Of a stretch of 64,000 nt of DNA, positions 9,295 to 47,127 are shown in pieces. Position 1 is the stretch's first letter; each line of letters starts with the position of its first letter. The notes under the pieces are model-generated. The model was not told where the DNA came from. It saw only the letters and a list, made by a program, of their open reading frames with translations, and made no database searches. Source of the stretch: an uncultured Bacteroidota bacterium (GTDB taxonomy: Bacteria; CLD3; SB21). The stretch covers positions 15,480 through 79,479 of the forward strand of contig CAYZJB010000004.1 of NCBI GenBank assembly GCA_964478735.1, written 5' to 3'. Position numbers and translations under genes: made by a program.

Positions 9295-9601
9295 TTATTC
9301 GAAGCATCCAGCGGTTTTCAAAAGACTTAGAGTTCTCTGGACGGTCGAAAAATCTATCCATCGAGGTAAACTTTGACCCTTTTAAGGGAGTTCATAAGCG
9401 TCAGGACTACCCGGTCAGTTCATTGTTCAACGTAGCCACAGCGTCTACATTAACCGCGCGACACACATCATATCTCAACGATTCTGTTCGACATTGCTTT
9501 TTTCAGACCGTCCTGAAACGCAAAGTGAAAGGAGACTCGCCACGCCCATGCGACTAAATTTCCTTTTTTATCCACCGCATTCCTTAACCAAGGAGGACAG
9601 T

Positions 9602-12514: not shown

Positions 12515-12544
12515 TCGTACGGATCAATACTGGAGAATTTTGAC

Positions 12545-15500
12545 ATGAATAAAATCAAAAATACGCTGATCGTGGGCGCCCTTATCGGTGCTCTCGTATT
12601 CGCGTTCAGTGACTGGTCGACGGCGCGTGTAGACAAAAATACACGTCTCCGTGCCAAACTTCGCAAGGCGGACATCGTCGACATTGTCAATGTCGGGTAC
12701 AACAACTGGAATTACATCATGCGTAACCAGGGGTCCTATTTTTACGATGCTCCGAACGGAAACCCCGGGGGTGAATTCCCCCGGGGCTCCGGCAATACCA
12801 TCGTGTTTGCCGCCGGTGTGTATGTCGGAACGTTGAAAGACGGTGTACCCGTGGTCAGCGAAACGGAATTTGCTACCGAATTTCAACCTGGCCGTATTTC
12901 AAATTCCGATGTGCCTTTTGACGAATTGGAAGCCGAAGATCCGACTCGTGCCGATTTGCAAGTCTACCTGATCGATCGGTCTGCGTCCGGTTCGGATTAT
13001 GCCAACTGGCCGAGTGATGCGCCCAAAAATAGTTTGGGTCAACCTGCTCTAATTGCCGATGCCCAGACGTGGGCGGTATTCAACGATCTGGACATAACGC
13101 TGAGTCAGGAAGGGACGAGCATCAGTCCCGATCCGGGTTTGGGTCTGGAAATCGTTTTGGAATCCTTTGCTTTCAATGCCGGACCTCTGAGCAATGTTGT
13201 CTATTGTAAGTTTACGATCAAGAACGAGACGAATACCGATTATTCGGATTCGTATCTGGGTATGTGGATGGACGCCGATGTCGATGCGAATAATTCTACA
13301 AATGATATCGTCGGTATCGATACGGTACGGGGTTTGGGTTTTGTCTATAATTCGGACAATTCAGATTTTCCGGGTGCTGCCGGGTTTGACTTCTTACAGG
13401 GCCCGGTCGTCGATACGACCACCGTTGCTTCCAGTCTGGTTAACAAGTTCCGAAACAACAAAGTGACGCTGGTTTATGATCCTGCAGAGAACCGGTATAT
13501 TCCGACGACGTTGCCGGGGAATCAGATCTGGCTTGGCGCGACGGCTTTCAATACGTATGCAAATGGTACCGATCCGCAGAATAACGAAGAGCGGTACAAC
13601 CTGCTGGCCGGGCGTTTTACCGATGGAAATCCCAAAACCGGTACCGGCGCCTGCGACTATTACGCGTTTCGCGGCGATCCGATTACCCAACAGGGGAGTC
13701 CGGACGTCGGAGCCCCTCCGGGATCCGATCAGCGAATTTTGCACTGCGTCGGACCTTTTGTGATCGATGCCGGGTCGTCGCAGGAGGTATGGGTTGGAGT
13801 TGTCGGAGCGCAAGGAACGGATCGCCTGGATGCCATTCGGGTACTGCGCAATACGGATGATCAAGCTCAAATTACATTCGAAGCGGGTTTAATCGCGCCA
13901 GCTCCTCCCAATGTACCACAGATCAATGTTACAGGACTGGATGGCGCCGTGGCCATCACTTGGCAGAACAATGCGGAATATTCCGAAGATATCGCAGGTG
14001 AGATTCTGGAAATTGACCAGGCGCATGGCTATACCGCCGATTACAGAAAAAACGATTTCCAGGGATATCGTGTTTGGAAAAGCCGGACTGGAATTGTAGG
14101 CAGCTACACGGTACTTGCGGAATTCGATCTGGCGGATGGGATCACAACAGTGATCAATCAGGTCATCAATACGGCTGGAAATTTGGAGATTCGTGAAGAG
14201 CGTCTGGGAGATGACGTGGGTCTTCGCTATTCCTTCATTGATAACGATGTGGTGAACGGACAGGCCTACTTTTACTCCGTTACGGCTTATGATGCCCAAC
14301 CTTATATCGCGGGTCCCGGCGTATTCAGTCTTGGAACGACACAGACATTGATAAAGGGCGAAGCGACCGGTATCATTCTTTCCGATACCGAGCCGGTTGC
14401 GATTTGGGATCAAGGGGATATCTATCTTGACTCACTCGCGATGGTGAGCGATGCCACTTATGGTTCAAACGGTGGAACGCTTATCGGTGATACCGTTTAT
14501 GTTGAAGTCGATACACATACCGTCGGTAGCACGCCTCAACTGGCCATCCACGCCTTTGTTGCCACATCGGTCGAGCGAGAAGAGTTCAATTTCGATTTCA
14601 ACAGTCTTGCACCGGCATTCCGTGTGGAGGGAATCGAATCGCCGGATGACGTGTCGCTCGGGGATGGAGTTTCGACAAATGTGACATTCGGTTTCAGCGA
14701 CGGGCATGACGAAGCCAATATCTTCCGGCTTAAGGTCGTGGATATACAACAATACGATGGCTCGATTCCTGCACCTTCAGGACTTCCGATTTCGTTGGAA
14801 ACATCGCCGACGGCCAATGTAGTGTCCGTCATACCGATGAGTGCTCTGATTGGTCAGAATTTTGACGCCTCGGTGTCTGATGTTGTCCATACCGGGCCCA
14901 GCGACGGAGCGATAACAGTGGAAATTATCGATCCGACAAAAGTTCGAAGTGTAGACTACTCGCTGAGCTTTTTCACTATTCCGACGGACTGTACGGGGGC
15001 CCCGCTCCGGGGTGATGACTTCCTTCCGGCCAATGGAATTGCATATCGTATTCAGGTTGGTTCCAGCATTCTTACTCTCGACTCTCGTACGGACGATCCG
15101 AGAACCTATTATGATGTCAATGGAAACGATACGTTCAACGTTGGAATCGATGTTCGTCTCGATGACTCTAAGTTTGGAGTCGATCAGGCGGTTGTTGGCA
15201 TAACCGCTACTGAACAACCGGTCATCGTCGATGGAATGAAAATTACGGTTTTTGGACCCTCCAATGACGTGAAATTCTTCCAACTCATTGCAACGGCGGC
15301 AGGTACGCTGGCCGTTCCCGATATGGCTGCGTTCGCTTTCAATGGAAGCGGGTTCCCAACGATTGACGGTGGTGCGGCCGGAAATGATTATACGGCTCTT
15401 GGTGCGGGTGCTTTGAATGATCGACCCAACGTTCCGAATCTATTGACCACTGTAGCAGCCGCATCTGCCGCCAACGGTGGCAAATGGGGATTCCAAACGG

Positions 15501-16519
15501 GCGAAGTTGGTGGAGGGTTTACTTTCACCTTTTTTAAGAGCCGTGTTTTCAGAAACGATAACTTCAATCGGTTCGTTCCATCTGATTTTGAGATGCGATT
15601 TACGGCAGCGGGTGGACAAGGAGACTGGATATTTGACGGACTGGGGCAAGCTGCTGTTCCATTTGAACTGTGGAACATCGGTGTGAATACCCCAAATGAT
15701 CCATCCGATGATTATCGGATGTATCCTCGCGTTCTGAATTCAACCGTTGTACCTTCGGCGGTTTATGATATCAGTACCATCGATCACACGATTTCAGGTG
15801 GTGACAACGATCCCGAAATGGATTGGGTGTATTGGATGAACCCCGATGATCGCTCGCCCGGTCAGACCGGTTATAATGCTTCCGTTGCAGCCAACGGCGA
15901 GGCCTTACAGGCACCCAATGGTGAGGTCATGGCGCGGACCACTTTGATCAATTTCAATGGCGGCAGCGTCTCGGATGGATCATTCCCAGCAAATGTCAAT
16001 CAGGTTATTCCGGCAACGGGAACGGTATTCCGTATTATCAGTACGAAACCGAATACCGTGTTCGATTCTTATGCTTTCTCGGGAACGGCGAGGACAACGT
16101 CAGCGTCTAAAGCCCAGATGAAGGCATCTCTGAAAGACATCCGTGCCGTTCCGAATCCCTACTACGGTCAGTCGTTGTATCAGACGCAGGGACTCTTCGG
16201 CAAAGTGTTGAAGTTCACGCATCTGCCGGGTAGCTGTACCATCAAGATCTTCAACGTTGCAGGTGACCTGGTGACGACACTGGTGCATAACGCGTCGTCG
16301 ACGAATGGACGGTTGAATACCAACCCGCTCGATATCAATGCGACGGCGGCTCCAAAGGAAACCTCGGAAGAGTGGTGGGATTTGACGAATGCCGACGGCA
16401 AGTTCGTCGCGAGCGGCATGTATATCGCATTGATCGACGTTCCCGGCGTGGGTAAGAAAACGGTGAAGTTTGCCGTGATTCAGGAAGCGAACATCACCAA
16501 CGGACCGGAAATTCGATAA
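12545..16519 (+). CDS. very large secreted protein (1324 aa) with T9SS-type C-terminal sorting domain; catalytic domain not recognised
   Basis: signal peptide; C-terminal ~90 aa VPNPYYGQSLYQT...KIFNVAGDLVTTLV...SGMYIALIDVPGVGKKTVKFAVI resembles T9SS CTD; GGAG SD. Confidence 0.7.
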   Translation: MNKIKNTLIVGALIGALVFAFSDWSTARVDKNTRLRAKLRKADIVDIVNVGYNNWNYIMRNQGSYFYDAPNGNPGGEFPRGSGNTIVFAAGVYVGTLKDGVPVVSETEFATEFQPGRISNSDVPFDELEAEDPTRADLQVYLIDRSASGSDYANWPSDAPKNSLGQPALIADAQTWAVFNDLDITLSQEGTSISPDPGLGLEIVLESFAFNAGPLSNVVYCKFTIKNETNTDYSDSYLGMWMDADVDANNSTNDIVGIDTVRGLGFVYNSDNSDFPGAAGFDFLQGPVVDTTTVASSLVNKFRNNKVTLVYDPAENRYIPTTLPGNQIWLGATAFNTYANGTDPQNNEERYNLLAGRFTDGNPKTGTGACDYYAFRGDPITQQGSPDVGAPPGSDQRILHCVGPFVIDAGSSQEVWVGVVGAQGTDRLDAIRVLRNTDDQAQITFEAGLIAPAPPNVPQINVTGLDGAVAITWQNNAEYSEDIAGEILEIDQAHGYTADYRKNDFQGYRVWKSRTGIVGSYTVLAEFDLADGITTVINQVINTAGNLEIREERLGDDVGLRYSFIDNDVVNGQAYFYSVTAYDAQPYIAGPGVFSLGTTQTLIKGEATGIILSDTEPVAIWDQGDIYLDSLAMVSDATYGSNGGTLIGDTVYVEVDTHTVGSTPQLAIHAFVATSVEREEFNFDFNSLAPAFRVEGIESPDDVSLGDGVSTNVTFGFSDGHDEANIFRLKVVDIQQYDGSIPAPSGLPISLETSPTANVVSVIPMSALIGQNFDASVSDVVHTGPSDGAITVEIIDPTKVRSVDYSLSFFTIPTDCTGAPLRGDDFLPANGIAYRIQVGSSILTLDSRTDDPRTYYDVNGNDTFNVGIDVRLDDSKFGVDQAVVGITATEQPVIVDGMKITVFGPSNDVKFFQLIATAAGTLAVPDMAAFAFNGSGFPTIDGGAAGNDYTALGAGALNDRPNVPNLLTTVAAASAANGGKWGFQTGEVGGGFTFTFFKSRVFRNDNFNRFVPSDFEMRFTAAGGQGDWIFDGLGQAAVPFELWNIGVNTPNDPSDDYRMYPRVLNSTVVPSAVYDISTIDHTISGGDNDPEMDWVYWMNPDDRSPGQTGYNASVAANGEALQAPNGEVMARTTLINFNGGSVSDGSFPANVNQVIPATGTVFRIISTKPNTVFDSYAFSGTARTTSASKAQMKASLKDIRAVPNPYYGQSLYQTQGLFGKVLKFTHLPGSCTIKIFNVAGDLVTTLVHNASSTNGRLNTNPLDINATAAPKETSEEWWDLTNADGKFVASGMYIALIDVPGVGKKTVKFAVIQEANITNGPEIR

Positions 16520-16575: not shown

Positions 16576-17616
16576 ATGAATAAAATATCCAAAGTGCTCG
16601 TTGGGCTAGCCATGCTGGCAGCGAGCGTAAGCGCCGGAGAGGAAAAGCGAGGTGAAGCGGGATTTGCTTTCCTACGGGTTCCCATCGGCGCCCGTGAAAC
16701 CGCCCTCGGTACGACCGGATTGACGCATGCGTCCGGAGCCAATGCATTGTACTGGAATCCGGCAAATGCGGCGGGTCTGGATCGTCCGTCGGTATCGGTG
16801 TCTTATTTGAATCACTTTGCCGGAATCAGTTCGAATTACTTTGCGGCCACGGTTCCGATGAGCGACGTCGGGACGTTCGGTTTCAGCCTTAACTATCTCA
16901 GCTATGGCGATATCGAACGTACGACAGAGGCCAGTCCGGATGGTAATCTCGGTTCGTACTCTCCGTTTGAGATTGCGGTCGGCTTCAGCTACGCCAAACA
17001 GATTACCGATCGTGTCAGCGGCGGTTTGACCGTGAAGTTCGTCTCGTCCAAGATCGATGCGGTCCAGGCGTCGGGTGTGGCGTTCGATTTCGGCTTCAGT
17101 TACAACACCGGTTTCCGCGGTTTGAAGCTCGGTTTTGTCGCGAGCAACATCGGTCCACAGGCGAAATATGACGGCGACGGTTTGTTGCGTCAGGTCAGTT
17201 TGCCCAATCCAAACGCGACCGGTGCGGGATCTCAAGGATTCCTTCAGTTCGAGTCGGAACCGTTCGAACTCCCGGCCTCGGTCAATTTCGGCGCAACGAT
17301 GGATCTGTACCGGAACGAACAGAATTCCGTTTCGGGTATTCTCGAGCAAAACATCAACAGTTTTGCCGTCAGCCGGACCAATCTGGGCCTGGAATACGGA
17401 TTCAAGAACATGTTCTTCGCCCGCGGCGGTTACACCAGCGCGTTGAAGCGTGACCGCGACTACAGGACGGGGAAGGCGTCGATGGCGGGATTAACCCTGG
17501 GCGCCGGGGTCGATTACAAATTCAATGATGCCTTCGGTGTGACCATCGATTACGGTTGGATGGATCTCGGTGAACTGAACGCGACGCACCGGTTCACGAT
17601 CGGTGTGAAGTTCTGA
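16576..17616 (+). CDS. PorV/PorQ-family-like outer membrane beta-barrel (T9SS cargo shuttle-like)
   Basis: signal peptide; N-terminal GARETALGTTG...ALYWNPANAAGL resembles GARAxAMGGA...WNPAGLA motif of PorV/FadL-like family; alternating beta-strand pattern; C-terminal F. Confidence 0.55.
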   Translation: MNKISKVLVGLAMLAASVSAGEEKRGEAGFAFLRVPIGARETALGTTGLTHASGANALYWNPANAAGLDRPSVSVSYLNHFAGISSNYFAATVPMSDVGTFGFSLNYLSYGDIERTTEASPDGNLGSYSPFEIAVGFSYAKQITDRVSGGLTVKFVSSKIDAVQASGVAFDFGFSYNTGFRGLKLGFVASNIGPQAKYDGDGLLRQVSLPNPNATGAGSQGFLQFESEPFELPASVNFGATMDLYRNEQNSVSGILEQNINSFAVSRTNLGLEYGFKNMFFARGGYTSALKRDRDYRTGKASMAGLTLGAGVDYKFNDAFGVTIDYGWMDLGELNATHRFTIGVKF

Positions 17617-21565: not shown

Positions 21566-22891
21566 ACGGGCCACAGGGATAAAAATTCAGGCAACCCCCA
21601 AAATTTTTTACTAACCCCTCCTTTGCTCCTCTTACGCACGGAATTTTTTCGGTATGATGAAAGCCTCCCGCTCGTTGAGGGCTTTTAGTGAAATTATTTT
21701 GATTGCTATCTGGAAGAGATTTAGAGCAGGGTTCAATCGAAATGTCACTCCTTCGGGGTTGACGTAAACATTTGTAGTAGTGTTTTTACAATCTGCATCC
21801 CTTCGGGATTGGCCCGCGATGGCAACACTCAAGCCCGAAGGGCTGAAATGATTGTATGAAGAACGTGCAAATAGAGTGCGAACCCCGAAGGGTGGTAGGG
21901 CCGTCCTCGGTAAAGCCGTCAGCTTTTCACACAACAAAAGGTGCTTTAGAGGTATCATCGTCTTTCGTGGACTGACCGCGTTCCCTCTCCTGCAGCACGG
22001 CAGTCCTGACTGCTCTTGAGCAAGATTGCGGGTTCACTTGAGCGGAGCAGGATGTGCACCGTATTTTTCGCAGCTCCTTTTGTTCCGTTATGGATTGGTT
22101 ACAACATCCGTGTACGACAAAAGGAGTTTTTTCTTGTATGTTCTTCAGCGCTCGAAAAAGAACCTTTTTTACCCTCAACAATTGCCGCCCGAGCATCTAA
22201 AATCAGGCCTTCGCGGGGGTTGTCTGTAGAAATTTGCCTTGACTATACACGACGGGACGGATTACCTTGGCCTGTCATGATACGGTGCTCGGGCTTTCTA
22301 TTACTGATTTCGTTTTCAGCGCTCCAGGCCTCCGAAGATTGCTCCGGACCTGTCGCTTCGAGGCCGGTTCCTGCATCATTTCAAAACTTCGATCATCTTC
22401 AATTTCCCGTTTTCCTTGGCTCGTTTCGAGAAGACTCCGACGGCAACACGTTCAGCCAGAAGACAAAACCCTACATCGCTTTTCTCCCGTCAAGTAACAT
22501 TTTACATCACTCGACAAAAAACGCTTTACGTTCGATTCTCCGTATTCACCACGGCCAGCTCGGCATCATTTCAGCCTTCCGTGCTCCTCCCGTCTTGTCC
22601 CTCCTTTAAGTAACAGGAACTAAAAGTTCAATCGGGTGCCGGCGTCTCCGATCCCTGATGGGACGCGGGCAATCGTAATTGCCTGTCCCGGCAGCGGCCG
22701 GTAGGGGCGCTTTTAAACGGCAACGTAACGGCCGTCATCATTTTACAATTTTTTTAAATACAGTCCGTCTTTATGGATGCATTAACCTTGTCTATCAGCG
22801 TCGCACTTATGGCTGCGCTGGTGGGGGTCTTCATTCACTTGATCATAAAATCAAAATCACAAAAAAATTAATAAAACGGAGTTTGACCTAT

Positions 22892-23173
22892 ATGCAGAAC
22901 ACGGAAACGTATCGGAATCTGATTTCCTGCGAGGAACTGTTTATGCAGGACCAGGAGTGGCTGGATAAACGAAACCGAGCCGTGAAAAAAATATTTAACG
23001 GTAATGAAAACGAATTCAAACAATTCCTGTCCCGCATCGAGCCGCTCCAGCAGTGGAAGGATGCGATGGTCGTCATCGAAGACGAGTTCTCCAAGCGGAA
23101 AGTGAAAAGCGATGCGCGGGAAGCCACCGGGTTGACCGACGTGCTTTTCAAGCGCTACTTCCCGTCGTACTGA
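22892..23173 (+). CDS. small hypothetical protein (93 aa)
   Basis: ATG 22892 preceded by GGAG 8 nt upstream; followed by bidirectional terminator. Confidence 0.45.
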   Translation: MQNTETYRNLISCEELFMQDQEWLDKRNRAVKKIFNGNENEFKQFLSRIEPLQQWKDAMVVIEDEFSKRKVKSDAREATGLTDVLFKRYFPSY

Positions 23174-23423: not shown

Positions 23424-25559
23424 TTAGGGTTGGAAAAATTTACCGTTCGCAGCGGCCATGGAACGAAGCCGCGTGCATGGTTCAAAACGATTTCCATAGG
23501 TCCGGGAAAACGTGTCCAGCGTGGCGGTGATGGCCGGGGCGCCGACGACGTCTGCGTACCGCATTAACCCTCCACGAAACGGAGGAAATCCCGTTCCGAA
23601 AATCATACCGATATCGATATCGTCGACGGATGTAACAATGCGTTCGTCCAGACACCGAACCGCTTCATTGATCATCGGGAAGAGCATGCGCTGCAGCATG
23701 ACGTCATCGGATAGATTAAAGGTTGCGGCCGGCTGCAGGATGCCATAAACGTCGGGGTCGACGAGAGTTTCTTTGCCGTGACGGTAAAATCCCAACTGCC
23801 CTTTTTTACCGAGACGGCCCTTGTGATACAGTTTTTCCACGGCATGCGAACCTTGGACTCTCGATCCGAAACTCTGTTCGAAAATCTTGCCGACTTTGTA
23901 TGCGACATCGATCCCAACCTCGTCGATCAGCAAACACGGTCCCATCGGCATACCGAACGTCGTCATCACACGGTCCAGCCGGTCGATCGGACAGCCCTCT
24001 TCGACCAGGAACCCGGCCTCATTCAAGTACGGCATGAGGAGACGATTGACCAGGAAACCGGGGCCGTCATTGACCACGATCGGCGTTTTGCCAAGCCGTT
24101 TCGCGAATTCGTACAACGTAGCGACCGTGCCGTCGCTTGTCTGACGTCCCCGAATGATCTCGACAAGCGGCATGCGATGGACGGGATTGAAAAAATGCAT
24201 GCCGGCAAAGCGTTCGGGATGAGAGACCGCCTGGGCCATTTCGGTGATCGACAGCGACGACGTGTTGGACGCCACGACGCACGTCGTGGAGATGTGCGTG
24301 GAGAGATCGGATAGTACCTTTTTCTTGACGTCCATGTTCTCCACGATCGCCTCAATGACGATATCGTTCTGCCGAAAACCGGTGTAGTCCAGAGTTCCGC
24401 TGATGAACGACATTTTCCTGCGAACGTCGGTCCGCGTCATGCGCCGGCGCTTTAACCGGGAATCGAAAACTTTCCGCGCCGATCGCATTCCGAGGGCAAT
24501 CGCGTCCATCGAGATGTCTTTCAGTCGGACCGGTATGTCCCGGTCGGCCAGTAATTGCGCAATGCCTCCGCCCATCACACCCGCGCCGAGAACGCCCGCA
24601 TAGTCGATGGGACGGACGTTCACGGCCTTTCCGGAAAGCCCATTGTGCTTTTTGATCTTTTCGGTAAGAAAATAAATGTTGATCAAATACTTCGAGACGG
24701 ATGAAACGACGAGTCGACTGAGATAGTCCGCTTCAATGGCCAGTCCTTCGCGCAGGGGTCGGGGCAGGCCTCGGCGAACGGCTTCAATGGCATCGAGCGG
24801 AGCGGGATAATGGCCGTGGGTCTGTTTCATCACCGACTCGCGCGCTTTCGAATAAATCAGTGATTGACCGACGGACTCCAACAATGCCGACACGAGGCCC
24901 CGCGGTTTACGATGACGCACGAGTTTTTTGTGTTTTCCGGCGAGGATGTCCTCGATGAACGGAAGCACGTGAATCTCGTAATTGGCATGCGGAACCACAC
25001 GATCGACGATTCCCTGCCGGAAAGCTTTTTTGGCATCCAGGGCTTTTCCGGTCAGGATCAAGGGCAACGCGCGCTGCAGCCCGATCGTGCGCGGCAAGCG
25101 CTGGGTGCCGCCGAATCCGGGAATAATGCCAAGCATGACCTCGGGAAGGCCGATTTTAGTTTTCGGGTGATCCGTGGCGATCCGATAACTGCAGGCAAGC
25201 GCCAGTTCCAATCCACCGCCCAAGCAGGCGCCGTTGATGACCGCGATGACGGGGAACGGAAGTTTTTCCAATCGCAAGAATATCTCGTGGACCTTCATGA
25301 CCGATTCGCGTACGGCGGCGGGATCCGATGCAGACCGGATTTCTTCAATATCCGCGCCGGCGATAAAGATGTCGGGTTTGGCGCTTTGGATGATGAGTGC
25401 ACGGATCGAGGTCTGATCGGTTTCAACGGCGGCGAGCGCGTCGTTGAATGCCAGCAGGAACTGCGCGGAAAGTTTGTTGACCTTCTCGCCGGGGTAATCC
25501 AGAGTCAACCGGCCGATCGAATCCTGAATCGCAAGTGTCATTCCAAAAAAAGACGGCAT
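23424..25559 (-). CDS. fatty-acid oxidation multifunctional protein (enoyl-CoA hydratase + 3-hydroxyacyl-CoA dehydrogenase, FadB/FadJ-like)
   Basis: N-terminal crotonase fold, central Rossmann GVLGAGVMGGGIAQ, 711 aa. Confidence 0.85.
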   Translation of the reverse strand: MPSFFGMTLAIQDSIGRLTLDYPGEKVNKLSAQFLLAFNDALAAVETDQTSIRALIIQSAKPDIFIAGADIEEIRSASDPAAVRESVMKVHEIFLRLEKLPFPVIAVINGACLGGGLELALACSYRIATDHPKTKIGLPEVMLGIIPGFGGTQRLPRTIGLQRALPLILTGKALDAKKAFRQGIVDRVVPHANYEIHVLPFIEDILAGKHKKLVRHRKPRGLVSALLESVGQSLIYSKARESVMKQTHGHYPAPLDAIEAVRRGLPRPLREGLAIEADYLSRLVVSSVSKYLINIYFLTEKIKKHNGLSGKAVNVRPIDYAGVLGAGVMGGGIAQLLADRDIPVRLKDISMDAIALGMRSARKVFDSRLKRRRMTRTDVRRKMSFISGTLDYTGFRQNDIVIEAIVENMDVKKKVLSDLSTHISTTCVVASNTSSLSITEMAQAVSHPERFAGMHFFNPVHRMPLVEIIRGRQTSDGTVATLYEFAKRLGKTPIVVNDGPGFLVNRLLMPYLNEAGFLVEEGCPIDRLDRVMTTFGMPMGPCLLIDEVGIDVAYKVGKIFEQSFGSRVQGSHAVEKLYHKGRLGKKGQLGFYRHGKETLVDPDVYGILQPAATFNLSDDVMLQRMLFPMINEAVRCLDERIVTSVDDIDIGMIFGTGFPPFRGGLMRYADVVGAPAITATLDTFSRTYGNRFEPCTRLRSMAAANGKFFQP

Positions 25560-25561
25560 GG

Positions 25562-26554
25562 TTACGGCACTTCGATTTTGTTGACGATCTGTTCGATGAT
25601 GTTTTCACTGGTCACTTCTTCGGCCTCCGCTTCGTACGTCAGGATCACGCGGTGACGAAGTACGTCGAGTGCGATCGAACGAATGTCTTCGGGAATCACG
25701 TAACCGCGACGATGCAGGAAGGCCATCGCTTTGGACGCCAGCACCAGATTGATCGATGCGCGCGGTGAGGCGCCGAACTGAATCAGCGGATTCAACGACG
25801 CCAGGCCAAACCGGTCGGGATGACGCGTCGCAAAAATCAAATCCAGGATGTAATTTTCGATTTTTTCATCGATATAAATGTCGTTGGTCACGTCGCGCGC
25901 GCGTTTGATTTCCTCCGGAGAAACGACGGCCCGTGCTTTCGGTTTCCGGGCGTTGGTAGCCATTCGTCGCATGATCTCGAGCTCTTCCTCTCGGTTCGGA
26001 TACCCGACACGCAGCTTGAGCATAAAGCGGTCGACCTGCGCCTCCGGCAGCGGATACGTGCCTTCCTGTTCGATCGGATTTTGAGTCGCCAGAACGAGAA
26101 ACGGATCGTCGAGCGGATACGTCGTGTCGCTGATCGTCACCTGGCGCTCCTGCATGGCTTCGAGAAGTGCACTCTGCACTTTGGCCGGAGATCGGTTGAT
26201 TTCGTCGGCCAGGATGAGATTGGCAAAGATCGGTCCCTTACGCGTGGTAAAGCCGCCGTCTTTTTGGTTGTACATCAGCGTTCCGACAAGATCGGCAGGA
26301 AGCAGGTCCGGGGTAAATTGAATGCGACGGAAAGTCGTATGAATGGCGTCCGCCAGCGTATTGACGGTCAGCGTTTTGGCCAGCCCGGGTACACCTTCCA
26401 GCAGGATGTGGCCATTGGATAAGAGAGCGACAAGAATACGTTCAACCATGTACCGCTGTCCCACGATGACCTGACCGATTTCGCGAATCAACGTATCGAC
26501 AAAAGCGCTTTCCCTGTGAATTCTCTCGTTCAGTTCCTGAATGTCAATAGCCAT
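25562..26554 (-). CDS. MoxR-family AAA+ ATPase
   Basis: VIVGQRYMVERILVALLSNGHILLEGVPGLAKT Walker A region, ~330 aa; starts MAIDIQ; 2 nt from fadB-like start. Confidence 0.85.
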   Translation of the reverse strand: MAIDIQELNERIHRESAFVDTLIREIGQVIVGQRYMVERILVALLSNGHILLEGVPGLAKTLTVNTLADAIHTTFRRIQFTPDLLPADLVGTLMYNQKDGGFTTRKGPIFANLILADEINRSPAKVQSALLEAMQERQVTISDTTYPLDDPFLVLATQNPIEQEGTYPLPEAQVDRFMLKLRVGYPNREEELEIMRRMATNARKPKARAVVSPEEIKRARDVTNDIYIDEKIENYILDLIFATRHPDRFGLASLNPLIQFGASPRASINLVLASKAMAFLHRRGYVIPEDIRSIALDVLRHRVILTYEAEAEEVTSENIIEQIVNKIEVP

Positions 26555-28574
26555 ACGATCCTTCTTTATTTTCGAATTTGACGACGACGACGGTGATGTC
26601 GTCCTGCAGCGTTCCATCCGGTACGAACCGGATCACGGCATCGATGATTTTTTCCTGGATTTGTTTGGCGGGGAGATTGCGATGCTCTCGAACAATGGCA
26701 TGAACGGGTTCTTCTCCGAACATTTCGTCCGCGGCATTGAAAACCTCGGTGACGCCATCGGTATACAGCAGCAAGATGTCTCCGGGGTCGATCATACGCG
26801 GCATTTGAGAATATTCTTGATCGGCAAGAAAACCCAGCACGATTCCCCCGTGGCTCAGTTTGAAAACGTCTCCGTTTTTTTTGTACAGAAAAGGTGCGCA
26901 GTGTCCCGCGTTGGTATAGTACAGGATCAACGATTCGAAATCAATGACGGTATAGAAGAAGGTCGCGTACATGTTTTCGGCCGTATTGGCCCGGAGCAAG
27001 TTGTTCAACGCGGCCACGGTGTCGGACGTCGAATTAAATTCCCGTACGAACCCTCGGTATCCCGCGTACAGCAGGGCCATCATGATCGCGCCCGGAACGC
27101 CTTTGCCCGATACATCGCCCACGCAAATTCCGATCTGGTGATCGTTGAGTCGCAGTACGTCGTAAAAGTCGCCGCCGACGGAAAAGCAGGGGATGCTCGA
27201 TGCCGACATATCGAGGTTCTGAATTCTCGGCAGCCGATGCGGCAGGATGGCCTGCTGAATGCGTCCGGCGATTTGCAGTTCTTTTTCCATTTCCCGATTT
27301 CGCAGGGACGCTTCATAAAGCTGTGCATTCTTGATCGCGATAGCCGCCTCGGCCGCCAGCGCCGTAAGAATGTCGACAAAACCCTCATGGTAGGCCGCCA
27401 GATGGTCGCTTTCGAGGTTCATTACACCGATGACCGTCGGGCCGTCGCAGATGGGGACCACGATCTCCGATCGCGTGCTGGGACGCAAATTCACGTAGTG
27501 CTCGTCAAAACTGACGTCTTTGACGATCATCAACTTGTTGACCTTGGCGACGTGGCCGATCAAACCGGTTCCCACTTTGATGTCGATCTGTTCGAGAGCT
27601 TTTTCTTCATAACCGCGCACCACGGCGCTTTCGATTTCCTGGGAGCCCTCATTGACCAGAAAAATTCCTGCCGCGTCGTACGGCACGATCGCCCGAACCG
27701 CGTCGAGGATCATATCGAGCAATTGTTCCAGATTGGAGGTGTGGTTGAACCGTTTGGTGATGTCGAGGATCAGTTCCTTCTCCATCAGGCTTTTTTTCAA
27801 CTGCTGGCCGATGCGGGCGTCCTCCAACGTTTGTCCTACGCGCTGAAGCGAGTGCCACAGAATTTTTTTATCCTCACCCATCAACGCATTGCGGCTGTCG
27901 ACCTCCGGACCCAGCGCTACAAGATAGCTGATCTCCTCTTTTTTCCAGAGCGGAACCAGGTACGCCGTTCCCTCGCTCTTGAGGATATGGATCGGATCGG
28001 AAAAGACGGCGCCGTTTTGACGGGCCAAAAGTTCGTCAATGCTGAACATGCGGGGAAGCGACAGCCATTTTTCATATTGCATCATATCCGCGCGGATGCG
28101 TCGAGTGACGATTTCGTCGCGAACCGTTGAGCTGACAAGTGAAAAATGGTCCGGGATGGCGAGGTACAGATTGACGTGCCTGACGTGAAGAATGTCCTTG
28201 AGACTGGACGTGACCGTATCGGCAAGGGCTTTATAGTCGCTTTGCGACGACAACGTAGAATCTAATAAACGGATCTGGCGTTGCCGTTCATGATAGTAGG
28301 TGAACAGCCAGCGCCGCATACGGGCTTCCGTAAACGTGCGGAGCGGTTCGTAGAAGATCACGATCAACAGGGCCTTGAGAAAATGGATCTGGAGCTCGCG
28401 TACGCGAGGAAAATACAATTCAAACAGCGTCTCCATCGTCACAAAAATGACGATAAAGGCAAACGTCAGGATCGCATACAGGATCAGGTAATGAAAACGT
28501 CGAAAATATTTAAGCATTGCGATAGGATGGACATAAAAAAAGCGGCCCAAATATACGAGCCGCCCTTCTAACAA
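26544..28574 (-). CDS. membrane-anchored GAF domain + PP2C/SpoIIE-type serine phosphatase (RsbU-like)
   Basis: N-terminal TM helices, GAF-like middle, C-terminal PPM motifs (GDVSGKGVPGA..., LLLYTDGVTE); start ambiguous (TTG 28574 or ATG 28517). Confidence 0.8.
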   Translation of the reverse strand: MLEGRLVYLGRFFYVHPIAMLKYFRRFHYLILYAILTFAFIVIFVTMETLFELYFPRVRELQIHFLKALLIVIFYEPLRTFTEARMRRWLFTYYHERQRQIRLLDSTLSSQSDYKALADTVTSSLKDILHVRHVNLYLAIPDHFSLVSSTVRDEIVTRRIRADMMQYEKWLSLPRMFSIDELLARQNGAVFSDPIHILKSEGTAYLVPLWKKEEISYLVALGPEVDSRNALMGEDKKILWHSLQRVGQTLEDARIGQQLKKSLMEKELILDITKRFNHTSNLEQLLDMILDAVRAIVPYDAAGIFLVNEGSQEIESAVVRGYEEKALEQIDIKVGTGLIGHVAKVNKLMIVKDVSFDEHYVNLRPSTRSEIVVPICDGPTVIGVMNLESDHLAAYHEGFVDILTALAAEAAIAIKNAQLYEASLRNREMEKELQIAGRIQQAILPHRLPRIQNLDMSASSIPCFSVGGDFYDVLRLNDHQIGICVGDVSGKGVPGAIMMALLYAGYRGFVREFNSTSDTVAALNNLLRANTAENMYATFFYTVIDFESLILYYTNAGHCAPFLYKKNGDVFKLSHGGIVLGFLADQEYSQMPRMIDPGDILLLYTDGVTEVFNAADEMFGEEPVHAIVREHRNLPAKQIQEKIIDAVIRFVPDGTLQDDITVVVVKFENKEGSYGY

Positions 28575-28590
28575 TCAATTTATTTTAGAC

Positions 28591-29904
28591 TTAATCGTAA
28601 TATTCCAATCCCAAATGGGTGATCATTTCCTCGCCTTTCATCCATCGCAGCGTGTTTTTCAGTTTCATCAGTTGGATGAAAAGATCGTGTTCGGGATAAA
28701 GCCCCGGAGCCGTCATTGGCGACTTGAAATAAAACGACAACCATTCCTGAATACCCTTGAATCCCGTCCGTCCGGCGAGGTCCAAAAACAGGGCAAGATC
28801 GAGAACGATCGGCGCCGCCAGAATGGAATCCCGGCATAAAAAATCGACTTTGATCTGCATGGGATACCCGAGCCACCCGAAAATATCGATATTATCCCAG
28901 CCTTCTTTGTTGTCGCCGCGCGGCGGATAATAATTGATCCGAACGACGTGTGAAAACTTGTCATACAAATCAGGATACAATTCCGGCTGCAGGATGTGCT
29001 CCAGTACCGATAACTTGCTTTCTTCCTTCGTCTTAAAAGATTCCGGGTCATCGAGAACTTCACCGTCGCGATTTCCTAGGATATTGGTCGAGTACCACCC
29101 CTGGAGGCCGAGAAGGCGTGCTTTGAATCCCGGTGCAAGGATGGTTTTCATCAGCGTTTGTCCCGTTTTGAAATCCTTGCCGCAAATCGGGACCCTGTTT
29201 TTGTCGGCCAGTTCGATCAACGCGGGGACGTCGGCGGACAAATTGGGCGCGCCGTTGGCGTAGGGGATACCTTCCTGGATGGCCGCGTATGCGTAGATCA
29301 TGCTTGATGGAATGTTGGGATCATTCTCGCGAAGACCTTTTTCCAGCTTCTCGAGCGAGGAATGAACGTCGCTGGGCTTGATAAAAATTTCCGTCGAACC
29401 GCACCACACCATGACGAGGCGGCTGCAACCGTTTTTCTGTTTGAAGTCCCGGATGTCATGGCGAAGCTGGTCGGCCAGTTCCATCTTTGTTTTCCCTGAC
29501 TTCACGTTGCGTCCGTTGAGCCGTTTGACGTATTGTTGATCAAAGACCGCTTTCATCGGGATTATTTTTTCTAACTCGGGCCGGATGGCATTGAGCAGGT
29601 CCTTGTCCAATACTCCGGCTTTCATCGCAGCCTCATAGGCGTTGTCTTCGAAAATATCCCACCCACCGAACACGATGTCCGTCAACTCCGTCAGAGGGAC
29701 GAATTCTTTGATCGACGGAATGCGTTTGTCGGTTCTTTTTCCAAGCCGGATGGTTCCCATTTGTGTCAATGACCCAATCGGTTTGGACAGACCTTTCCGA
29801 ACGGCAATGGTCCCGGCAATCATCGTGGTGGCCACGGCGCCGAGGCCGGGCAGCAGGATACCGAGTTTCCCTTCCGCTTTTTTGATATCAACTGGCGATT
29901 TCAA
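28591..29904 (-). CDS. myo-inositol-1-phosphate synthase (inositol-3-phosphate synthase)
   Basis: GLGAVATT NAD-binding start, ...YANGAPN...CGKDFKTGQT..KT.L...SYN.LGNRDG aligns with conserved MIPS core (NGSPQN...GDDxKSGQTK...LGNNDG). Confidence 0.8.
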   Translation of the reverse strand: MKSPVDIKKAEGKLGILLPGLGAVATTMIAGTIAVRKGLSKPIGSLTQMGTIRLGKRTDKRIPSIKEFVPLTELTDIVFGGWDIFEDNAYEAAMKAGVLDKDLLNAIRPELEKIIPMKAVFDQQYVKRLNGRNVKSGKTKMELADQLRHDIRDFKQKNGCSRLVMVWCGSTEIFIKPSDVHSSLEKLEKGLRENDPNIPSSMIYAYAAIQEGIPYANGAPNLSADVPALIELADKNRVPICGKDFKTGQTLMKTILAPGFKARLLGLQGWYSTNILGNRDGEVLDDPESFKTKEESKLSVLEHILQPELYPDLYDKFSHVVRINYYPPRGDNKEGWDNIDIFGWLGYPMQIKVDFLCRDSILAAPIVLDLALFLDLAGRTGFKGIQEWLSFYFKSPMTAPGLYPEHDLFIQLMKLKNTLRWMKGEEMITHLGLEYYD

Positions 29905-29916
29905 TAGGTCGTTCTC

Positions 29917-30618
29917 CTAATTCTTGTTCTGTAAACTGAGCTTGTAGGTATGGTGCATACGCTGAATGGCAGTGAAGTTGGCCAGAACGGCTACGATCGC
30001 CAGCGGTACGGTAAAAACATACAGAGGTTTGAAAATCGGAATATCGTCATAAAACCAGATAAAGCCGGGATCGATGAAAAATGTCGAGAGCCCGCAAAAC
30101 AGCGAACCGACGCCCAACCACACGATCCGTTCCGCCCGCTGCATCAGTCCGACCTTGCATTCCAATTGAAGGGCTTCGGAGCGGGCTCGGATGTAGCTGA
30201 CCATCGTCGATCCGCCCAGCGCGATAAAACAGAAAACCGATTCATTAAAATAATTATGGGCAACGAGGTAATACCCCATTCCCAGAAACATCACGACTTC
30301 ACTGTAGCGATCCAACACGGAATCGTACAGGGCGCCGAAACGGGTTGCCTGGCCGGAACCGCGCGCAACCTTTCCGTCCAAAATGTCACAGATGCCGCCC
30401 ATGAGAATCCAGAAACCGCCCCAGCCGATATAGGCGAGATCGTCGCGTGAACCAAAACGAGCGCCCCACGCAAAACATCCGGCCCCGACGACGTTGAGCA
30501 TCAGACCGAGCGTGGTAAACCAGTTGGGATTGACACGAAATCTAGTAAATAACGTGATGGCAGGTTGGATGACGGTCAGAAAGCCGCGTTCCACAGCCTT
30601 GGGCAGCATGACACTCAA
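29917..30618 (-). CDS. CDP-alcohol phosphatidyltransferase family membrane protein (likely phosphatidylinositol-phosphate synthase given MIPS neighbour)
   Basis: DG(x2)AR(x8)G(x3)D(x3)D motif DILDGKVARGSGQATRFGALYDSVLD; multiple TM helices; 12 nt upstream of MIPS. Confidence 0.75.
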   Translation of the reverse strand: MSVMLPKAVERGFLTVIQPAITLFTRFRVNPNWFTTLGLMLNVVGAGCFAWGARFGSRDDLAYIGWGGFWILMGGICDILDGKVARGSGQATRFGALYDSVLDRYSEVVMFLGMGYYLVAHNYFNESVFCFIALGGSTMVSYIRARSEALQLECKVGLMQRAERIVWLGVGSLFCGLSTFFIDPGFIWFYDDIPIFKPLYVFTVPLAIVAVLANFTAIQRMHHTYKLSLQNKN

Positions 30619-30690
30619 GCAAAAACATCTCCGGGTTGATCAAAAAAACACGCGCGAATGTAGGCGGGGGGGTGGTAAAAATCAAGCAAC

Positions 30691-30725
30691 AAAAAAGCCC
30701 GGAACCCATGTTCCGGGCTTTTTAC
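30691..30725. terminator. bidirectional rho-independent terminator
   Basis: AAAAA-AGCCCGGAAC-ccat-GTTCCGGGCT-TTTTT. Confidence 0.75.
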
Positions 30726-30736
30726 TATCGGCTAAT

Positions 30737-31258
30737 TTACTTCAGGCGGATCAAGATTCCGAGATCGACACCGATCCGGGTTTCTTTGATTGCGCTGGGG
30801 GAAGTCTTAGTGAAATTGACTTCCGCGGTAATGGCGCCGCCTTCCATCGGCCAATATTTAATACCGACGCCGCCCATGATATTAAACGGAGCATCATCAC
30901 CGCCGGCTTTGCCTAACGGTCCATCACCGATTCCAAGATCCACGCCGACTTTGGCGTACGGCCACATTTTTTCTTTAGCTGCAAAGTGATAGGCGCCAAA
31001 CGCACCAATCTGGGCGCTAAACTTGTCATTGAAGGCATTGTCGCCACCAAACTTCAATATGGCTAGCTCGCCACCAACTTCAATCGCAGGAGTCAAAAAG
31101 AAACCTACGCCTGCAGCCGGACCAATCTGGCTGACTTCAGCTTCTGAAAGAGACGCAAAAAGAGGTCCGCCGAGTGAGAATTCCACCATGCCTTTGTCCG
31201 GCTGGGCAAAAGCCGTGGTCGTAAACAGGACGGCCACTGCTAACAGTAGCTTCTTCAT
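30737..31258 (-). CDS. small outer-membrane beta-barrel protein (OmpW/OmpA-barrel-like)
   Basis: signal peptide MKKLLLAVAVLFTTTAFA, glycine-rich amphipathic strands, 173 aa. Confidence 0.6.
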   Translation of the reverse strand: MKKLLLAVAVLFTTTAFAQPDKGMVEFSLGGPLFASLSEAEVSQIGPAAGVGFFLTPAIEVGGELAILKFGGDNAFNDKFSAQIGAFGAYHFAAKEKMWPYAKVGVDLGIGDGPLGKAGGDDAPFNIMGGVGIKYWPMEGGAITAEVNFTKTSPSAIKETRIGVDLGILIRLK

Positions 31259-34060: not shown

Positions 34061-35380
34061 ATGAAACTCCGAAAAGCCGTGTTGGGTTTGGTGGTTGCCG
34101 TGTCCTCCGTCGTGGCTCAAAAAGGCGCCGGCGGTCCGTTTTTTTTTCTCGATGCGGCCAATTTTGCCTCGCGCGACACCAACCTCGGCAGGATCGAAGT
34201 GTTCGTCAAAGTCGCCCATTCCGAGCTCGTGTTTTCCCGGTTTCAGACGGATTTTTTTCGGGCCCAGTACGAACTGACGTTTCAGATCTTCGATAAGGAA
34301 AAAAATCTCGTCAAACGCGACATTCAGGACCGGGAAATTCGTTTGTCGACGTATCAGGAAACGACGTCCGATGTGAAATTTCACTTCAGCCGTCTGACGA
34401 CCGACCTGGCGCCGGGCGACTACACGCTGATCGTTAACCTGACGGACCGGGAAACGCAAAAATCCGGCCAGCGTCAACTGGAAATTCCGGTCCGCGGATT
34501 TCGCGACCGCCCCGTCGGCATCAGTGATCTTATTTTCGCCGATCGTATTCAGAAAGACACACTCCTCGACATCGTGAATATTGTACCCAACGTATTCAAG
34601 AGTTTTGACAACGAGTACAAAAATTACGCGGTGTATTTTGAAATTTACAATGAACGGCTGGCGTACAAGTATCGCGACGAACAAGGAAAGATTCCGAAAG
34701 ACACGGACGACGTTAAAATTCATTATCGCGTGCTGGATAAAAATCAAAAACTCGTAATGGAAGACAGCCTTGAGAAAAAGGTATGGCAATTTCAAACGTT
34801 CAGTTCGGTCGAGATCAACAAAGGGGCATTGAGCTTTGGGAAGTACATCCTTGACGTGACCGTCCAGAAAGGTCCACACCGGGCGTCGACAAAATCGATC
34901 TTTGACGTGCGATTGTCCGCTTTTACTGCACCCTCACTTGCCGTGCAGACGTTCGATCTGGATCAGGCGATCAAACAAATGCGTCACATCGCGCGAAACG
35001 AAAACCTGTCCAAGATCCTGAAAAAACCCCAGTCGGAGAAACAGGAATTCTTCAAAGCGTTCTGGAAGCAGCGGGATCCATCGCCGGAAACCGAACGCAA
35101 CGAGTTGATGGAGGAATACTACCGCCGGATCGATTATGCCAACCGCTATTTTACGTCGGGTTTTCGTGAAGGCTGGGATACCGACCGCGGCATGGTTTAC
35201 ATCATCCTGAGTGCTCCCGACGATATTGAGCGTCATCCTTACGAGGCGAATTCCCAGCCGTACGAGATCTGGTATTTTTACAGCGCCAATCTGAAACTGG
35301 TCTTTGTCGATTTCAACGCCGTTGGCGACTACGAATTGTACAACCGTCTCGATTTTGAGAACTATATCGCCCTGCGCTAA
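34061..35380 (+). CDS. GWxTD-domain secreted protein
   Basis: signal peptide; C-terminal ...FWKQRDP...YYRRIDYANRYF...GWDTDRGMVYIILSAPDDIERHP...YEIWYFY. Confidence 0.7.
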   Translation: MKLRKAVLGLVVAVSSVVAQKGAGGPFFFLDAANFASRDTNLGRIEVFVKVAHSELVFSRFQTDFFRAQYELTFQIFDKEKNLVKRDIQDREIRLSTYQETTSDVKFHFSRLTTDLAPGDYTLIVNLTDRETQKSGQRQLEIPVRGFRDRPVGISDLIFADRIQKDTLLDIVNIVPNVFKSFDNEYKNYAVYFEIYNERLAYKYRDEQGKIPKDTDDVKIHYRVLDKNQKLVMEDSLEKKVWQFQTFSSVEINKGALSFGKYILDVTVQKGPHRASTKSIFDVRLSAFTAPSLAVQTFDLDQAIKQMRHIARNENLSKILKKPQSEKQEFFKAFWKQRDPSPETERNELMEEYYRRIDYANRYFTSGFREGWDTDRGMVYIILSAPDDIERHPYEANSQPYEIWYFYSANLKLVFVDFNAVGDYELYNRLDFENYIALR

Positions 35381-43627: not shown

Positions 43628-45028
43628 TTAACGGATGACCCGGAGTTCATTTTGATAGCTCGGATTGTTGTACTCGCCGCGGGCATTGGAGTGGATGAGT
43701 TTGAGGCTGCTGGATCCCGCCGTTTCTGCAAATACGAATAGCGTTTGGGTCGGTTGGTTCGGCAATTGCAAGTAATACCAGATCTGGTAGGGAATCACGT
43801 CCTGCTCAAATTCATGTTTTTCGATCTGAGCCGGTGGGCCATAGGTTATGTAGATACGGCCCATGTCGGATTTCCAGCCCGGTACGTTGGGTGAACTGAA
43901 CCGCTGCTCAGCCTCATCGAATCGGCGATAGTATTCGATCAGCTGTTCATTCGTTTTGGTACCGGGCGAGGGGTCGCGGTCTTTCCAGAACCGATCCAAA
44001 AATTCACGTTTGCCGGCAAGGTCCAGTTTGTCGTAAATCTTCTTTTCGTCCTGTTTGCCGATATACGAAATGATATAACCGGCCCGCTCGGCGCTTTTTT
44101 CGTCCAGAGTACTGAAATAAGATTCCTCGCTTTTGATCTCATCAAACGATTCGCCTTCACGAAAGACGACAAAAAGTTCGTTGCTCTGAGTCTGTTTTTT
44201 CGAATCCAAATCGGTGACCCGAACGGTCAATTGATACCGGCCTGTTTTAAACCCGATTACCGGGATGGAATGGAGGATCACCGCCGTACTGCCGGCTTTA
44301 TTCTGTACTTTGGCAGGATATTCCTTGATCACGCTTCCGGACTCGTCCGTGATGATATACTCGAGCTGATACGTTCCGGGCGACTCTGATTTATATTCCA
44401 AATTATAAACTTCGGCATACAGGAAAAGCCGCGGTAAATTGGATCCGAAAAATTTGGACGGATTGGGATATACGGTCATCCCATTTTTGACGAACATTTC
44501 TTCGGCGTTTCCACCCTTATAAATTTGCGATGCGAGTTCGATATGACTGGTCATGAGATCGTTACCGGAATAATCGGACACGTTGATCGATTCGGTAAAC
44601 CGGCCGTACCGGCTGGTATCCGAGATGTCCCGTAGAATGACCGTCGCCTTGTACAAGCCGGGTTTCAGTGCAAAATTATTTTCAAAGATCAACGGGACAT
44701 CTTTTGTTGAGTCCACCGCAACGTCTCCCTGAATCGTTGACGACCAACTCCTTTCAAAGACATTGGTTGCATCCTTTGTATCCTGCATGTGCAGGGCCAC
44801 GACGTAAGAAGCCGCCGGGCCTTTTTCCGTCTCGACAAATTTGAATGCACTGCGCTGGACGAAGAAATGAAGCTGTAAATAGGTAAGATCGGGTTGATTC
44901 AGCATTTTGAAGCAACTGGCGTCGACGTAAAATTCAATCGGACCTTCGCTCTGATTGCCGGGCGACCCGGCAAAAGCCGTCCCGCAATATATCGCGAGAC
45001 CCAGCAACAACATGACCGTGCGTTTCAT
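43628..45028 (-). CDS. GWxTD-domain secreted protein (paralog of 34061-35380)
   Basis: signal peptide; ...FWKDRDPSP...[12 protein letters not shown]...[16 protein letters not shown]...YQIWYY. Confidence 0.7.
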
Positions 45029-45037
45029 AGTGGTTCC

Positions 45038-45610
45038 TTACGCCTTTTGAACGGTTTGATATATTCTTTTGATAAGCGCGAGTTGCCCTTCGCCGGAAAC
45101 CGAGGAGTAATGCACGATATCGCCGAACGTCTTCTTCAGCAGGTCCAGATGACGGGCACGCTGCGATGGCCGAACTCGGTCGATTTTGCCGGCGACCGTG
45201 ATCGTCACGATGCCGGTCTGCCCTAACCATTCCCTGAGCTGCATGTCCGACGATTGTGGCGCCAGGCTGCCATCGATAAGATGTATGATGGATTTGGGAA
45301 CCCGGTGTTGGAAGCACCATTCATCGACCATGCGGCGCCACGCCGTGCGCAGCTTCGGTCCCGATTTGGCAAAACCGTATCCCGGGACGTCGACAAGCCA
45401 AAACGTTTGGTCGACAAGGTAGTAGTTCAAGGATTGCGTCTTTCCCGGTGTTTTGCTGACGCGTGCGATTTTTTTTCCTGCCAGCGAATTGATCATCGAT
45501 GATTTTCCGACATTGGATCGGCCGAAAAGCGCGATTTCGGCCACCGCATCCTGCGGCAATTGCTCCAATTTATAATAACTTCCCACGAATTCGCACGATT
45601 CAAACGTCAC
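45038..45610 (-). CDS. engB: ribosome biogenesis GTP-binding protein EngB/YihA
   Basis: GRSNVGKSSMINSL G1, LVDVPGYGF G3, 190 aa. Confidence 0.85.
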   Translation of the reverse strand: MTFESCEFVGSYYKLEQLPQDAVAEIALFGRSNVGKSSMINSLAGKKIARVSKTPGKTQSLNYYLVDQTFWLVDVPGYGFAKSGPKLRTAWRRMVDEWCFQHRVPKSIIHLIDGSLAPQSSDMQLREWLGQTGIVTITVAGKIDRVRPSQRARHLDLLKKTFGDIVHYSSVSGEGQLALIKRIYQTVQKA

Positions 45611-45615
45611 GGCGG

Positions 45616-47016: not shown

Positions 47017-47127
47017 GCCAATCCTCTTGATTAGGTGATGTATAAATAGTAGTTTAGCTCGTGTTTGAGGATTAGCAAACTACTTAAACGGTCAGACATA
47101 ATCAATTTTTTTTAGGCCGGAGACAAC

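Follow-up and report, generated by a model that had tools for sequence, protein, structure and literature searches.

Do two adjacent genes on the minus strand of contig CAYZJB010000004.1, from an uncultured bacterium, encode a route to inositol phospholipids, and which of their neighbors belong to the same transcription unit? The stretch of DNA that was analyzed (64 kb) is called the window below. The upstream gene (29917..30618) encodes a 233-residue CDP-alcohol phosphatidyltransferase of the BT_1523 type, a predicted phosphatidylinositol phosphate (PIP) synthase, identified by Pfam, NCBIfam and structure matches. The downstream gene (28591..29904) encodes a 437-residue myo-inositol-1-phosphate (inositol-3-phosphate) synthase, identified by PF07994 and PF01658. 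These genes are referred to as PIPS and MIPS, respectively. Both start with TTG, and the intercistronic gap (29905..29916) is exactly 12 nt long; an earlier note on this DNA had described the two open reading frames (ORFs) and their spacing in the same terms. As judged from sequence, the two genes very probably form an operon that supplies the enzymes for steps one and two of inositol phospholipid synthesis in bacteria.

In the proposed pathway, MIPS would cyclize glucose-6-phosphate (G6P) to L-myo-inositol-1-phosphate (Ins-1-P) using bound NAD+. The PIP synthase, a predicted six-helix membrane transferase, would then join the inositol phosphate to CDP-diacylglycerol (CDP-DAG), with phosphatidylinositol phosphate (PIP-DAG) and CMP as the expected products. 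A phosphatase encoded elsewhere would be expected to turn PIP-DAG into phosphatidylinositol (PI). The two reading frames, with their short gap and Shine-Dalgarno-like sites, would be translated in close proximity from a unit that would begin after a terminator and would most likely end at a hairpin following MIPS.

The transferase was placed in its family by ranking the scores of curated NCBI hidden Markov models and by comparing pocket residues. PF01066 (CDP-OH_P_transf) matched at 53.2 bits (gathering score 22). The signature D-x2-D-G-x2-A-R-x8-G-x3-D-x3-D, which includes the motif given in the earlier note, is present as DILDGKVARGSGQATRFGALYDSVLD (residues D75-D100 in the numbering of a 230-residue form) and is invariant in 28 homologues. 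No model scored higher than NF052561 (PIPSynBT1523), which gave 262.5 bits (cut-off 350) and was matched from position 5 to position 226 of its 232; the archaetidylinositol-phosphate synthase (AIPS) model was second at 132.6 bits (cut-off 180), and the actinobacterial PIPSynth model reached 106.2 bits (cut-off 170). Because the best score lies below the equivalog cut-off, the transferase was filed in a sister clade of the BT_1523 type and not as a strict BT_1523 orthologue; its predicted activity should nonetheless be that of a PIP synthase. A Bacteroides oleiciplenus protein from a cluster of the B. thetaiotaomicron (BT) type is 46% identical to it over the full length.

The nearest solved structures were the PIP synthases of Mycobacterium tuberculosis, M. 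kansasii and Renibacterium. M. tuberculosis PgsA1 (6h53) was matched at E 9e-14, or at 1.3e-22 with the family profile. The inositol-phosphate pocket of PgsA1 is lined by R94, S132, Y133, K135, R137, R152, R155 and R195, and R94, R155 and R195 are reported to be critical (PMC6506517). The counterparts in the transferase are R104, S141, Y142, R144, R146, R161, R164 and R220, respectively; all eight positions are invariant in the family alignment (28 homologues).

For MIPS, PF07994 matched at 362 bits (gathering score 25) over its full length (1-321/321), and PF01658 matched at 113.6 bits (gathering score 27). The best PDB match was 7nwr, the BT_1526 MIPS of B. thetaiotaomicron (E 6.5e-172; 263 identities in 419 aligned positions, i.e. 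63%), an enzyme that has been assayed and crystallized (PMC9246714). The N-terminal Rossmann glycine motif, PGLGAVATT, aligned with GVGGAVATT in the BT enzyme and GAYGIVSTT in that of Archaeoglobus fulgidus, and is one residue shorter than in BT. Residues D244, N274, D280, K293, K297, K333, D359 and K394 of MIPS aligned with identical A. fulgidus residues (D225, N255, D261, K274, K278, K306, D332 and K367, in that order), which we take to be the active-site residues of the enzyme. With these residues intact in MIPS and NF052561 as the best model for its partner, the earlier note's proposal of a route to inositol phospholipids was supported. MIPS proteins of the same subfamily were found in Acidobacteriota and Krumholzibacteriota at 76-79% identity. 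In a Krumholzibacteriota metagenome-assembled genome (MAG; L090, 7057..10314), the genes next to that of a 79%-identical MIPS encode an inositol monophosphatase and a LysR regulator but no transferase; this MIPS probably serves free inositol production.

The adjacency of the two genes was examined in four related lineages, which were reached by exact-protein look-ups: L001-L003, L086/L087 (labelled CLD3), L088 and L089. Their PIPS proteins are 86, 69, 67 and 62% identical to that of the window, respectively, and PIPS is followed by MIPS in all of them, with a 4-nt overlap in L001-L003 and gaps of 18 nt (L086/L087), 34 nt (L088) and 38 nt (L089). Because it is repeated in four lineages over this range of identity (86-62%), the adjacency is not due to chance. 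Beyond MIPS, genes for a PP2C phosphatase, a MoxR-type ATPase and a FadJ-type enzyme follow in L001-L003 and L086/L087, as they do in the window. Genes for an EPSP-synthase-like (5-enolpyruvylshikimate-3-phosphate) protein, a GFO_IDH_MocA oxidoreductase and an HD-domain protein follow in L088. The L089 contig stops ca. 400 nt past MIPS, and its neighborhood was covered only that far. Since only the L001 and L086/L087 lineages retain the trio, the PIPS-MIPS pair was taken as the conserved functional unit. More widely, 80 comparison loci from Bacteroidota and Chlorobiota were taken from among the matches listed in a scan of a genome collection (PIPS identity 43-51%); in 57 of them, MIPS is no more than 8 kb away from the PIPS homologue.

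Abundance of the transferase family was counted in a library of 50%-identity cluster representatives, in which the window's own PIPS clade collapses to a single entry (P0004, 72% identity). Relatives numbered 42 at E ≤ 1e-30 and 2016 at E ≤ 1e-10. A wide distribution of the inositol lipid pathway among Bacteroidota has also been demonstrated (PMC9246714), and the statement in the earlier note that inositol phospholipids are uncommon in bacteria was thus too strong.

The limits of the transcription unit were examined next to its translational signals. A GGAG Shine-Dalgarno-like site (30629..30632, minus strand), read from the sequence, precedes the TTG of the transferase by 10 nt. One gene caller begins this protein three codons later, at an ATG (230 residues); the longer, 233-residue form is favored because its relatives share the N-terminus MS(V/L)MLP, and the position of the GGAG site also supports it. 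The 12-nt intercistronic gap, together with the stop codon, gives AGGAG 9 nt before the TTG of MIPS. Upstream of the pair, the intrinsic terminator of an outer-membrane beta-barrel gene (30737..31258) occupies 30692..30723 on the minus strand (14-bp stem with 7 GC pairs, 4-nt loop, T-run). When the surrounding 61 nt were folded, dG was -27.5 kcal/mol (z -5.15), and 0 of 200 shuffles were as good. Because this hairpin lies just upstream, PIPS-MIPS heads a transcription unit, in agreement with the earlier note. The same note had extended the unit into a membrane phosphatase gene and the genes beyond; this extension is doubtful. MIPS is separated from the phosphatase gene by 73 nt that include a terminator-like hairpin (28535..28563, minus strand; 8-bp GC-rich stem, 6-nt loop, then seven U). 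Its dG is -20.8 kcal/mol (z -2.45), and 2 of 200 shuffles did as well. Hairpins with U-runs are also found behind MIPS in L086 (z -6.66) and in L088 (z -4.68), and the genes that come next in L088 are different ones. The corresponding hairpin of L001 is weaker and has no U-run. The hairpin in the window is the probable 3' end of a two-gene unit, and the architecture is most likely beta-barrel gene, terminator, PIPS-MIPS, terminator-like hairpin, PP2C-MoxR-FadJ.

A match to the Rfam Thr_leader family (30619..30727, plus strand) was rejected as chance: it scored 28.8 bits against a threshold of 55 and coincides with the beta-barrel gene's terminator hairpin on the opposite strand. Beyond this sub-threshold match, no known RNA elements were detected around the pair. 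A sigma-70 scan returned no more sites than shuffled sequences did, and none of them fell within the 73 nt that precede the transferase; promoters of the Fibrobacteres-Chlorobi-Bacteroidetes (FCB) type lie outside the model that was used.

How complete is the module? In B. thetaiotaomicron, the inositol lipid cluster is BT_1522-BT_1526: knock-outs of BT_1523 or BT_1526 lose PI-DAG, a knock-out of BT_1525, which encodes a PgpA-family PIP phosphatase, accumulates PIP-DAG, and inositol phosphoceramide is the product of the PAP2-type BT_1522 (PMC9246714). Profiles were built from 63 PgpA and 72 PAP2_3 sequences of Bacteroidota, and GtrA and DUF4833 profiles were also used; all stop-to-stop ORFs of at least 40 residues served as targets. 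Among the 80 listed loci, PgpA was present in 63, GtrA in 58, PAP2_3 in 71 and DUF4833 in 63. The PgpA and PAP2_3 profiles had no match in the window, in the ca. 9-10 kb covered around the pair in L001, L086 and L088, or in the available part of L089 (best E 1.7-2.4); the positive controls, a Chlorobiota MAG (L083) and a Chitinophagales locus (L072), were recovered at about E 1e-54. No GtrA or DUF4833 match was obtained among the ORFs of the window, and GtrA was also absent from the related loci. Pfam searches of ten small or unassigned and ten large ORFs in the window revealed no PIP phosphatase or inositol phosphoceramide synthase. The window lineage carries a stripped-down version of the known inositol lipid cluster.

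A DUF5686 match (9398..12511) was rejected as a cluster gene, as it represents a TonB-dependent receptor (9494..12514) that shares the CarboxypepD_reg domain. In many Bacteroidota, the neighbors of PIPS include genes for DUF5686/CarboxypepD_reg, GtrA, PgpA, fatty-acid hydroxylase and PAP2_3 proteins. DUF4833 tracks the inositol lipid cluster closely, and in many Bacteroidota it is fused to the PIP synthase or encoded after it, e.g. in Pedobacter (L008, 8001..9290).

Several observations weigh against the assignment of the pair to a two-gene operon for inositol phospholipid synthesis. The 262.5 bits of the transferase fall short of the 350 that NF052561 requires of an equivalog. Neither the 64-kb window nor the surroundings of the pair in the related lineages hold a PgpA-type phosphatase, GtrA or PAP2_3, and the last step to PI is unaccounted for because no PgpA-type phosphatase is encoded near the pair. 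The hairpin that follows MIPS beats its shuffles only moderately (z -2.45), its L001 counterpart is weak, and transcription may in part continue into the phosphatase gene. Finally, sequence cannot tell whether the lipid donor would be CDP-DAG or another CDP-activated lipid.

Three other explanations were weighed against the two-gene operon. The most extensive makes the pair part of a longer unit. The gene after the hairpin (26544..28517, minus strand, ATG at 28517) encodes a 657-residue protein with SpoIIE (PF07228, 158 bits) and GAF (PF01590, 59.4 bits) domains and a hydrophobic segment at residues 5-37 that forms an N-terminal anchor; it was called likewise in an identical contig (L084) and is probably part of a separate unit. 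It overlaps by 11 nt the gene for the MoxR-type AAA+ ATPase (25562..26554, minus strand), which is followed after 2 nt by that for a FadJ/FadB-type enoyl-CoA hydratase/3-hydroxyacyl-CoA dehydrogenase (23424..25559, minus strand), both assigned by Pfam and NCBIfam. If all five genes formed one operon, the GAF-PP2C protein might dephosphorylate PIP-DAG or regulate the inositol lipid pathway. The five genes do share a strand, their order is kept in L001 (86% PIPS identity) and L086/L087 (69%), the phosphatase is anchored, and no other candidate for a PIP phosphatase was found nearby; moreover, in L083 and L072 a PgpA gene stands right after MIPS, where the window has the hairpin and then the PP2C gene. 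These points are opposed by the hairpin with its seven U between MIPS and the phosphatase gene, by its equivalents in L086 and L088, and by the unrelated genes (EPSP-synthase-like, GFO_IDH_MocA and HD) that follow the pair in L088. A GAF-PP2C homologue was found near PIPS in 0 of the 80 listed loci (blastp, E ≤ 1e-10). PF07228/PP2C enzymes are Ser/Thr protein phosphatases, and we know of no member with a demonstrated lipid substrate, which was also counted against a five-gene operon. We regard such an operon as quite unlikely. As for the term "membrane phosphatase" used in the earlier note, the GAF and SpoIIE/PP2C domains belong to a protein phosphatase and to no lipid phosphatase family. The protein is predicted to be a regulatory phosphatase of the Ser/Thr type, not a PgpA, PAP2 or HAD lipid phosphatase, and on present evidence it contributes nothing to the inositol pathway.

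The remaining two explanations concern the product. In one, MIPS would supply inositol as an osmolyte or precursor and the transferase would make an inositol-phosphate solute such as di-myo-inositol phosphate. The enzyme that forms the latter in archaea (DIPPS) likewise belongs to PF01066 and uses inositol-1-phosphate as its acceptor, and the L090 MIPS (79% identity), standing beside an inositol monophosphatase gene without a transferase, indicates that the window's MIPS clade serves other ends too. Yet PF01066 is the sole domain of the 233-residue transferase, which has no cytidylyltransferase domain, and no nucleotidyltransferase was found in the neighboring genes that were scanned. The IPCT/DIPPS model (inositol-1-phosphate cytidylyltransferase fused to DIPPS; NF041135) gave 46.5 bits against a cut-off of 580, the solved DIPPS (4mnd) was the weakest of seven PDB matches, no inositol monophosphatase gene adjoins the pair, and the closest characterized relative forms a lipid (PMC9246714). 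The earlier note had argued against the di-myo-inositol-phosphate route from the unfused transferase, and its argument held; a soluble product is very unlikely. In the other explanation, the transferase would be a housekeeping synthase of phosphatidylglycerophosphate (PGP), cardiolipin or phosphatidylserine that is next to MIPS by coincidence. The CDP-alcohol transferase signature is common to it and such enzymes, and its homologues are entered as "phosphatidylglycerophosphate synthase" in several source databases. The corresponding models, however, scored far below their cut-offs (pgsA TIGR00560, 28.4 bits vs. 109.1; PRK10832, 21.7 vs. 304; ClsA, 24.9 vs. 240), so the grouping with PGP or cardiolipin synthases that the earlier note had named as damaging to its proposal was not seen. 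E. coli PgsA aligned over the signature motif only (29% identity over 69 residues) and has Lys opposite R104, whereas the Arg-rich inositol-phosphate pocket of the transferase is conserved, as is its adjacency to MIPS across lineages. A housekeeping role was judged extremely unlikely.

A variant of the inositol lipid assignment deals with the missing last step. The lineage may have kept only PIPS and MIPS, having lost or never had a linked PgpA, so that PIP-DAG would be the end-product or a non-orthologous PIP phosphatase would finish the pathway; we consider this rather unlikely. The nearest candidate for such a phosphatase would be the membrane-anchored GAF-PP2C protein, whose gene comes next after the pair in part of the clade. 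If that proved true, the protein would represent a novel class of enzyme, and the step in question is one that lacks an assigned enzyme in mycobacteria too. The absence of a linked PIP phosphatase is the sole point of wider interest at this locus, and if the genome encodes a PgpA at another site, nothing about the locus would be unusual.

As a two-gene operon for inositol phospholipid synthesis, the pair would extend the route from G6P through Ins-1-P and PIP-DAG to PI, for which there is experimental proof in Actinobacteria and Bacteroidota, to a deep uncultured host of the FCB type, with the inositol lipid module in its smallest form. The pair helps to trace the spread of inositol lipids among bacteria. 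The assignment is also useful for annotation because of the "phosphatidylglycerophosphate synthase" labels carried by homologues of the transferase in several sources.

The host fits a deep uncultured lineage of the FCB type. The window encodes a PorV-like protein of the type IX secretion system (T9SS), a TonB receptor with a CarboxypepD_reg domain and GWxTD proteins. Relatives of its MutS2 were found at 100, 85, 70 and 61% identity, then at ca. 51%, and the next entries were from KSB1, Calditrichota, Bacteroidota and Rhodothermus at ca. 40%. The GC content of the window is about 49-56%. Ten CLD3 genomes, from wastewater and bioreactors, have 34-49% GC (PMC11382960). Assignment to the phylum CLD3 is tentative because it comes only from the name of one relative's ENA contig (L086; Bacteria_p_CLD3) and the GC content of the window is above 34-49%. 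Neither CLD3 nor Candidatus Robemiota has an entry in the NCBI taxonomy.

Other features of the surroundings were recorded. The PP2C-MoxR-FadJ trio is tightly packed in the window (23424..28517, minus strand), in L001 (12098..17176) and in L086 (12212..17439), and is not kept in L088. There, the MIPS terminator is followed (11216..14188) by the EPSP-synthase-like gene, the GFO_IDH_MocA oxidoreductase gene and the gene of the HD-domain hydrolase. The GFO_IDH_MocA family includes inositol dehydrogenases, and a link between these genes and inositol metabolism is possible. Past FadJ, the window has only short ORFs without Pfam matches between 21600 and 23400 (22016..22609 and 22679..23173). At the matching place in L001, a GHL10 gene precedes the rplQ-rpoA ribosomal cluster, and synteny between the window and L001 therefore breaks downstream of FadJ. 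Three plus-strand ORFs had no Pfam match at E ≤ 1e-5: 12545..16519 (1324 residues), 30..1379 (449 residues) and 45499..47034 (511 residues). The largest sits between the TonB-dependent receptor gene (9494..12514) and that of the PorV-like T9SS protein (16576..17616). Two GWxTD-domain proteins are encoded less than 10 kb apart, one at 34061..35380 (plus strand), predicted from its L001 counterpart, which has the domain, and one at 43628..45028 (minus strand), which was scanned directly.

Among known systems, the archaeal enzymes AIPS and bifunctional IPCT/DIPPS share with the transferase the superfamily and the acceptor, inositol-1-phosphate. They differ in that its AIPS score (132.6 bits) is under the cut-off (180), it has no IPCT domain, its DIPPS score is 46.5 against 580, and its host is a bacterium, as judged by the PorV-like T9SS protein and the TonB receptor. 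The actinobacterial PgsA1 enzymes (M. tuberculosis Rv2612c, 6h53; Renibacterium, 5d91/5d92) resemble it in the metal-binding Asp motif and in the inositol-phosphate pocket residues, whereas the window enzyme and its Bacteroidota relatives have an extra segment of ca. 10 residues, GSRDDLAYIGWGG, between helices 2 and 3. The actinobacterial PIP synthase feeds the synthesis of phosphatidylinositol mannosides and lipoarabinomannan and, to our knowledge, is not paired with ino1 in the manner of the window.

The loci of L083 (7845..13411) and L072 (1242..3898) have the same order, PIPS then MIPS, with short gaps of 32 and 41 nt, respectively. There, however, PgpA comes directly after MIPS (in part with GtrA and DUF5686 next), in place of the terminator-like hairpin and unrelated PP2C gene of the window. 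The B. thetaiotaomicron cluster differs in having BT_1525 (PgpA), BT_1524 (GtrA) and BT_1522 (PAP2_3), which are without counterparts in the window and related loci; the order PIPS then MIPS with a 12-nt gap, and a host outside Bacteroidota proper, also set the window apart. Both core enzymes are shared, with MIPS ca. 63% identical to BT_1526, the transferase scoring best on the BT_1523 model and the signature motif in common, and the two pairs would be expected to catalyze identical reactions (Ins-1-P from G6P, then PIP-DAG from Ins-1-P and CDP-DAG). The route is already proven in Bacteroides and in mycobacteria, and the pair is an ordinary, stripped-down example of it in a little-known lineage.

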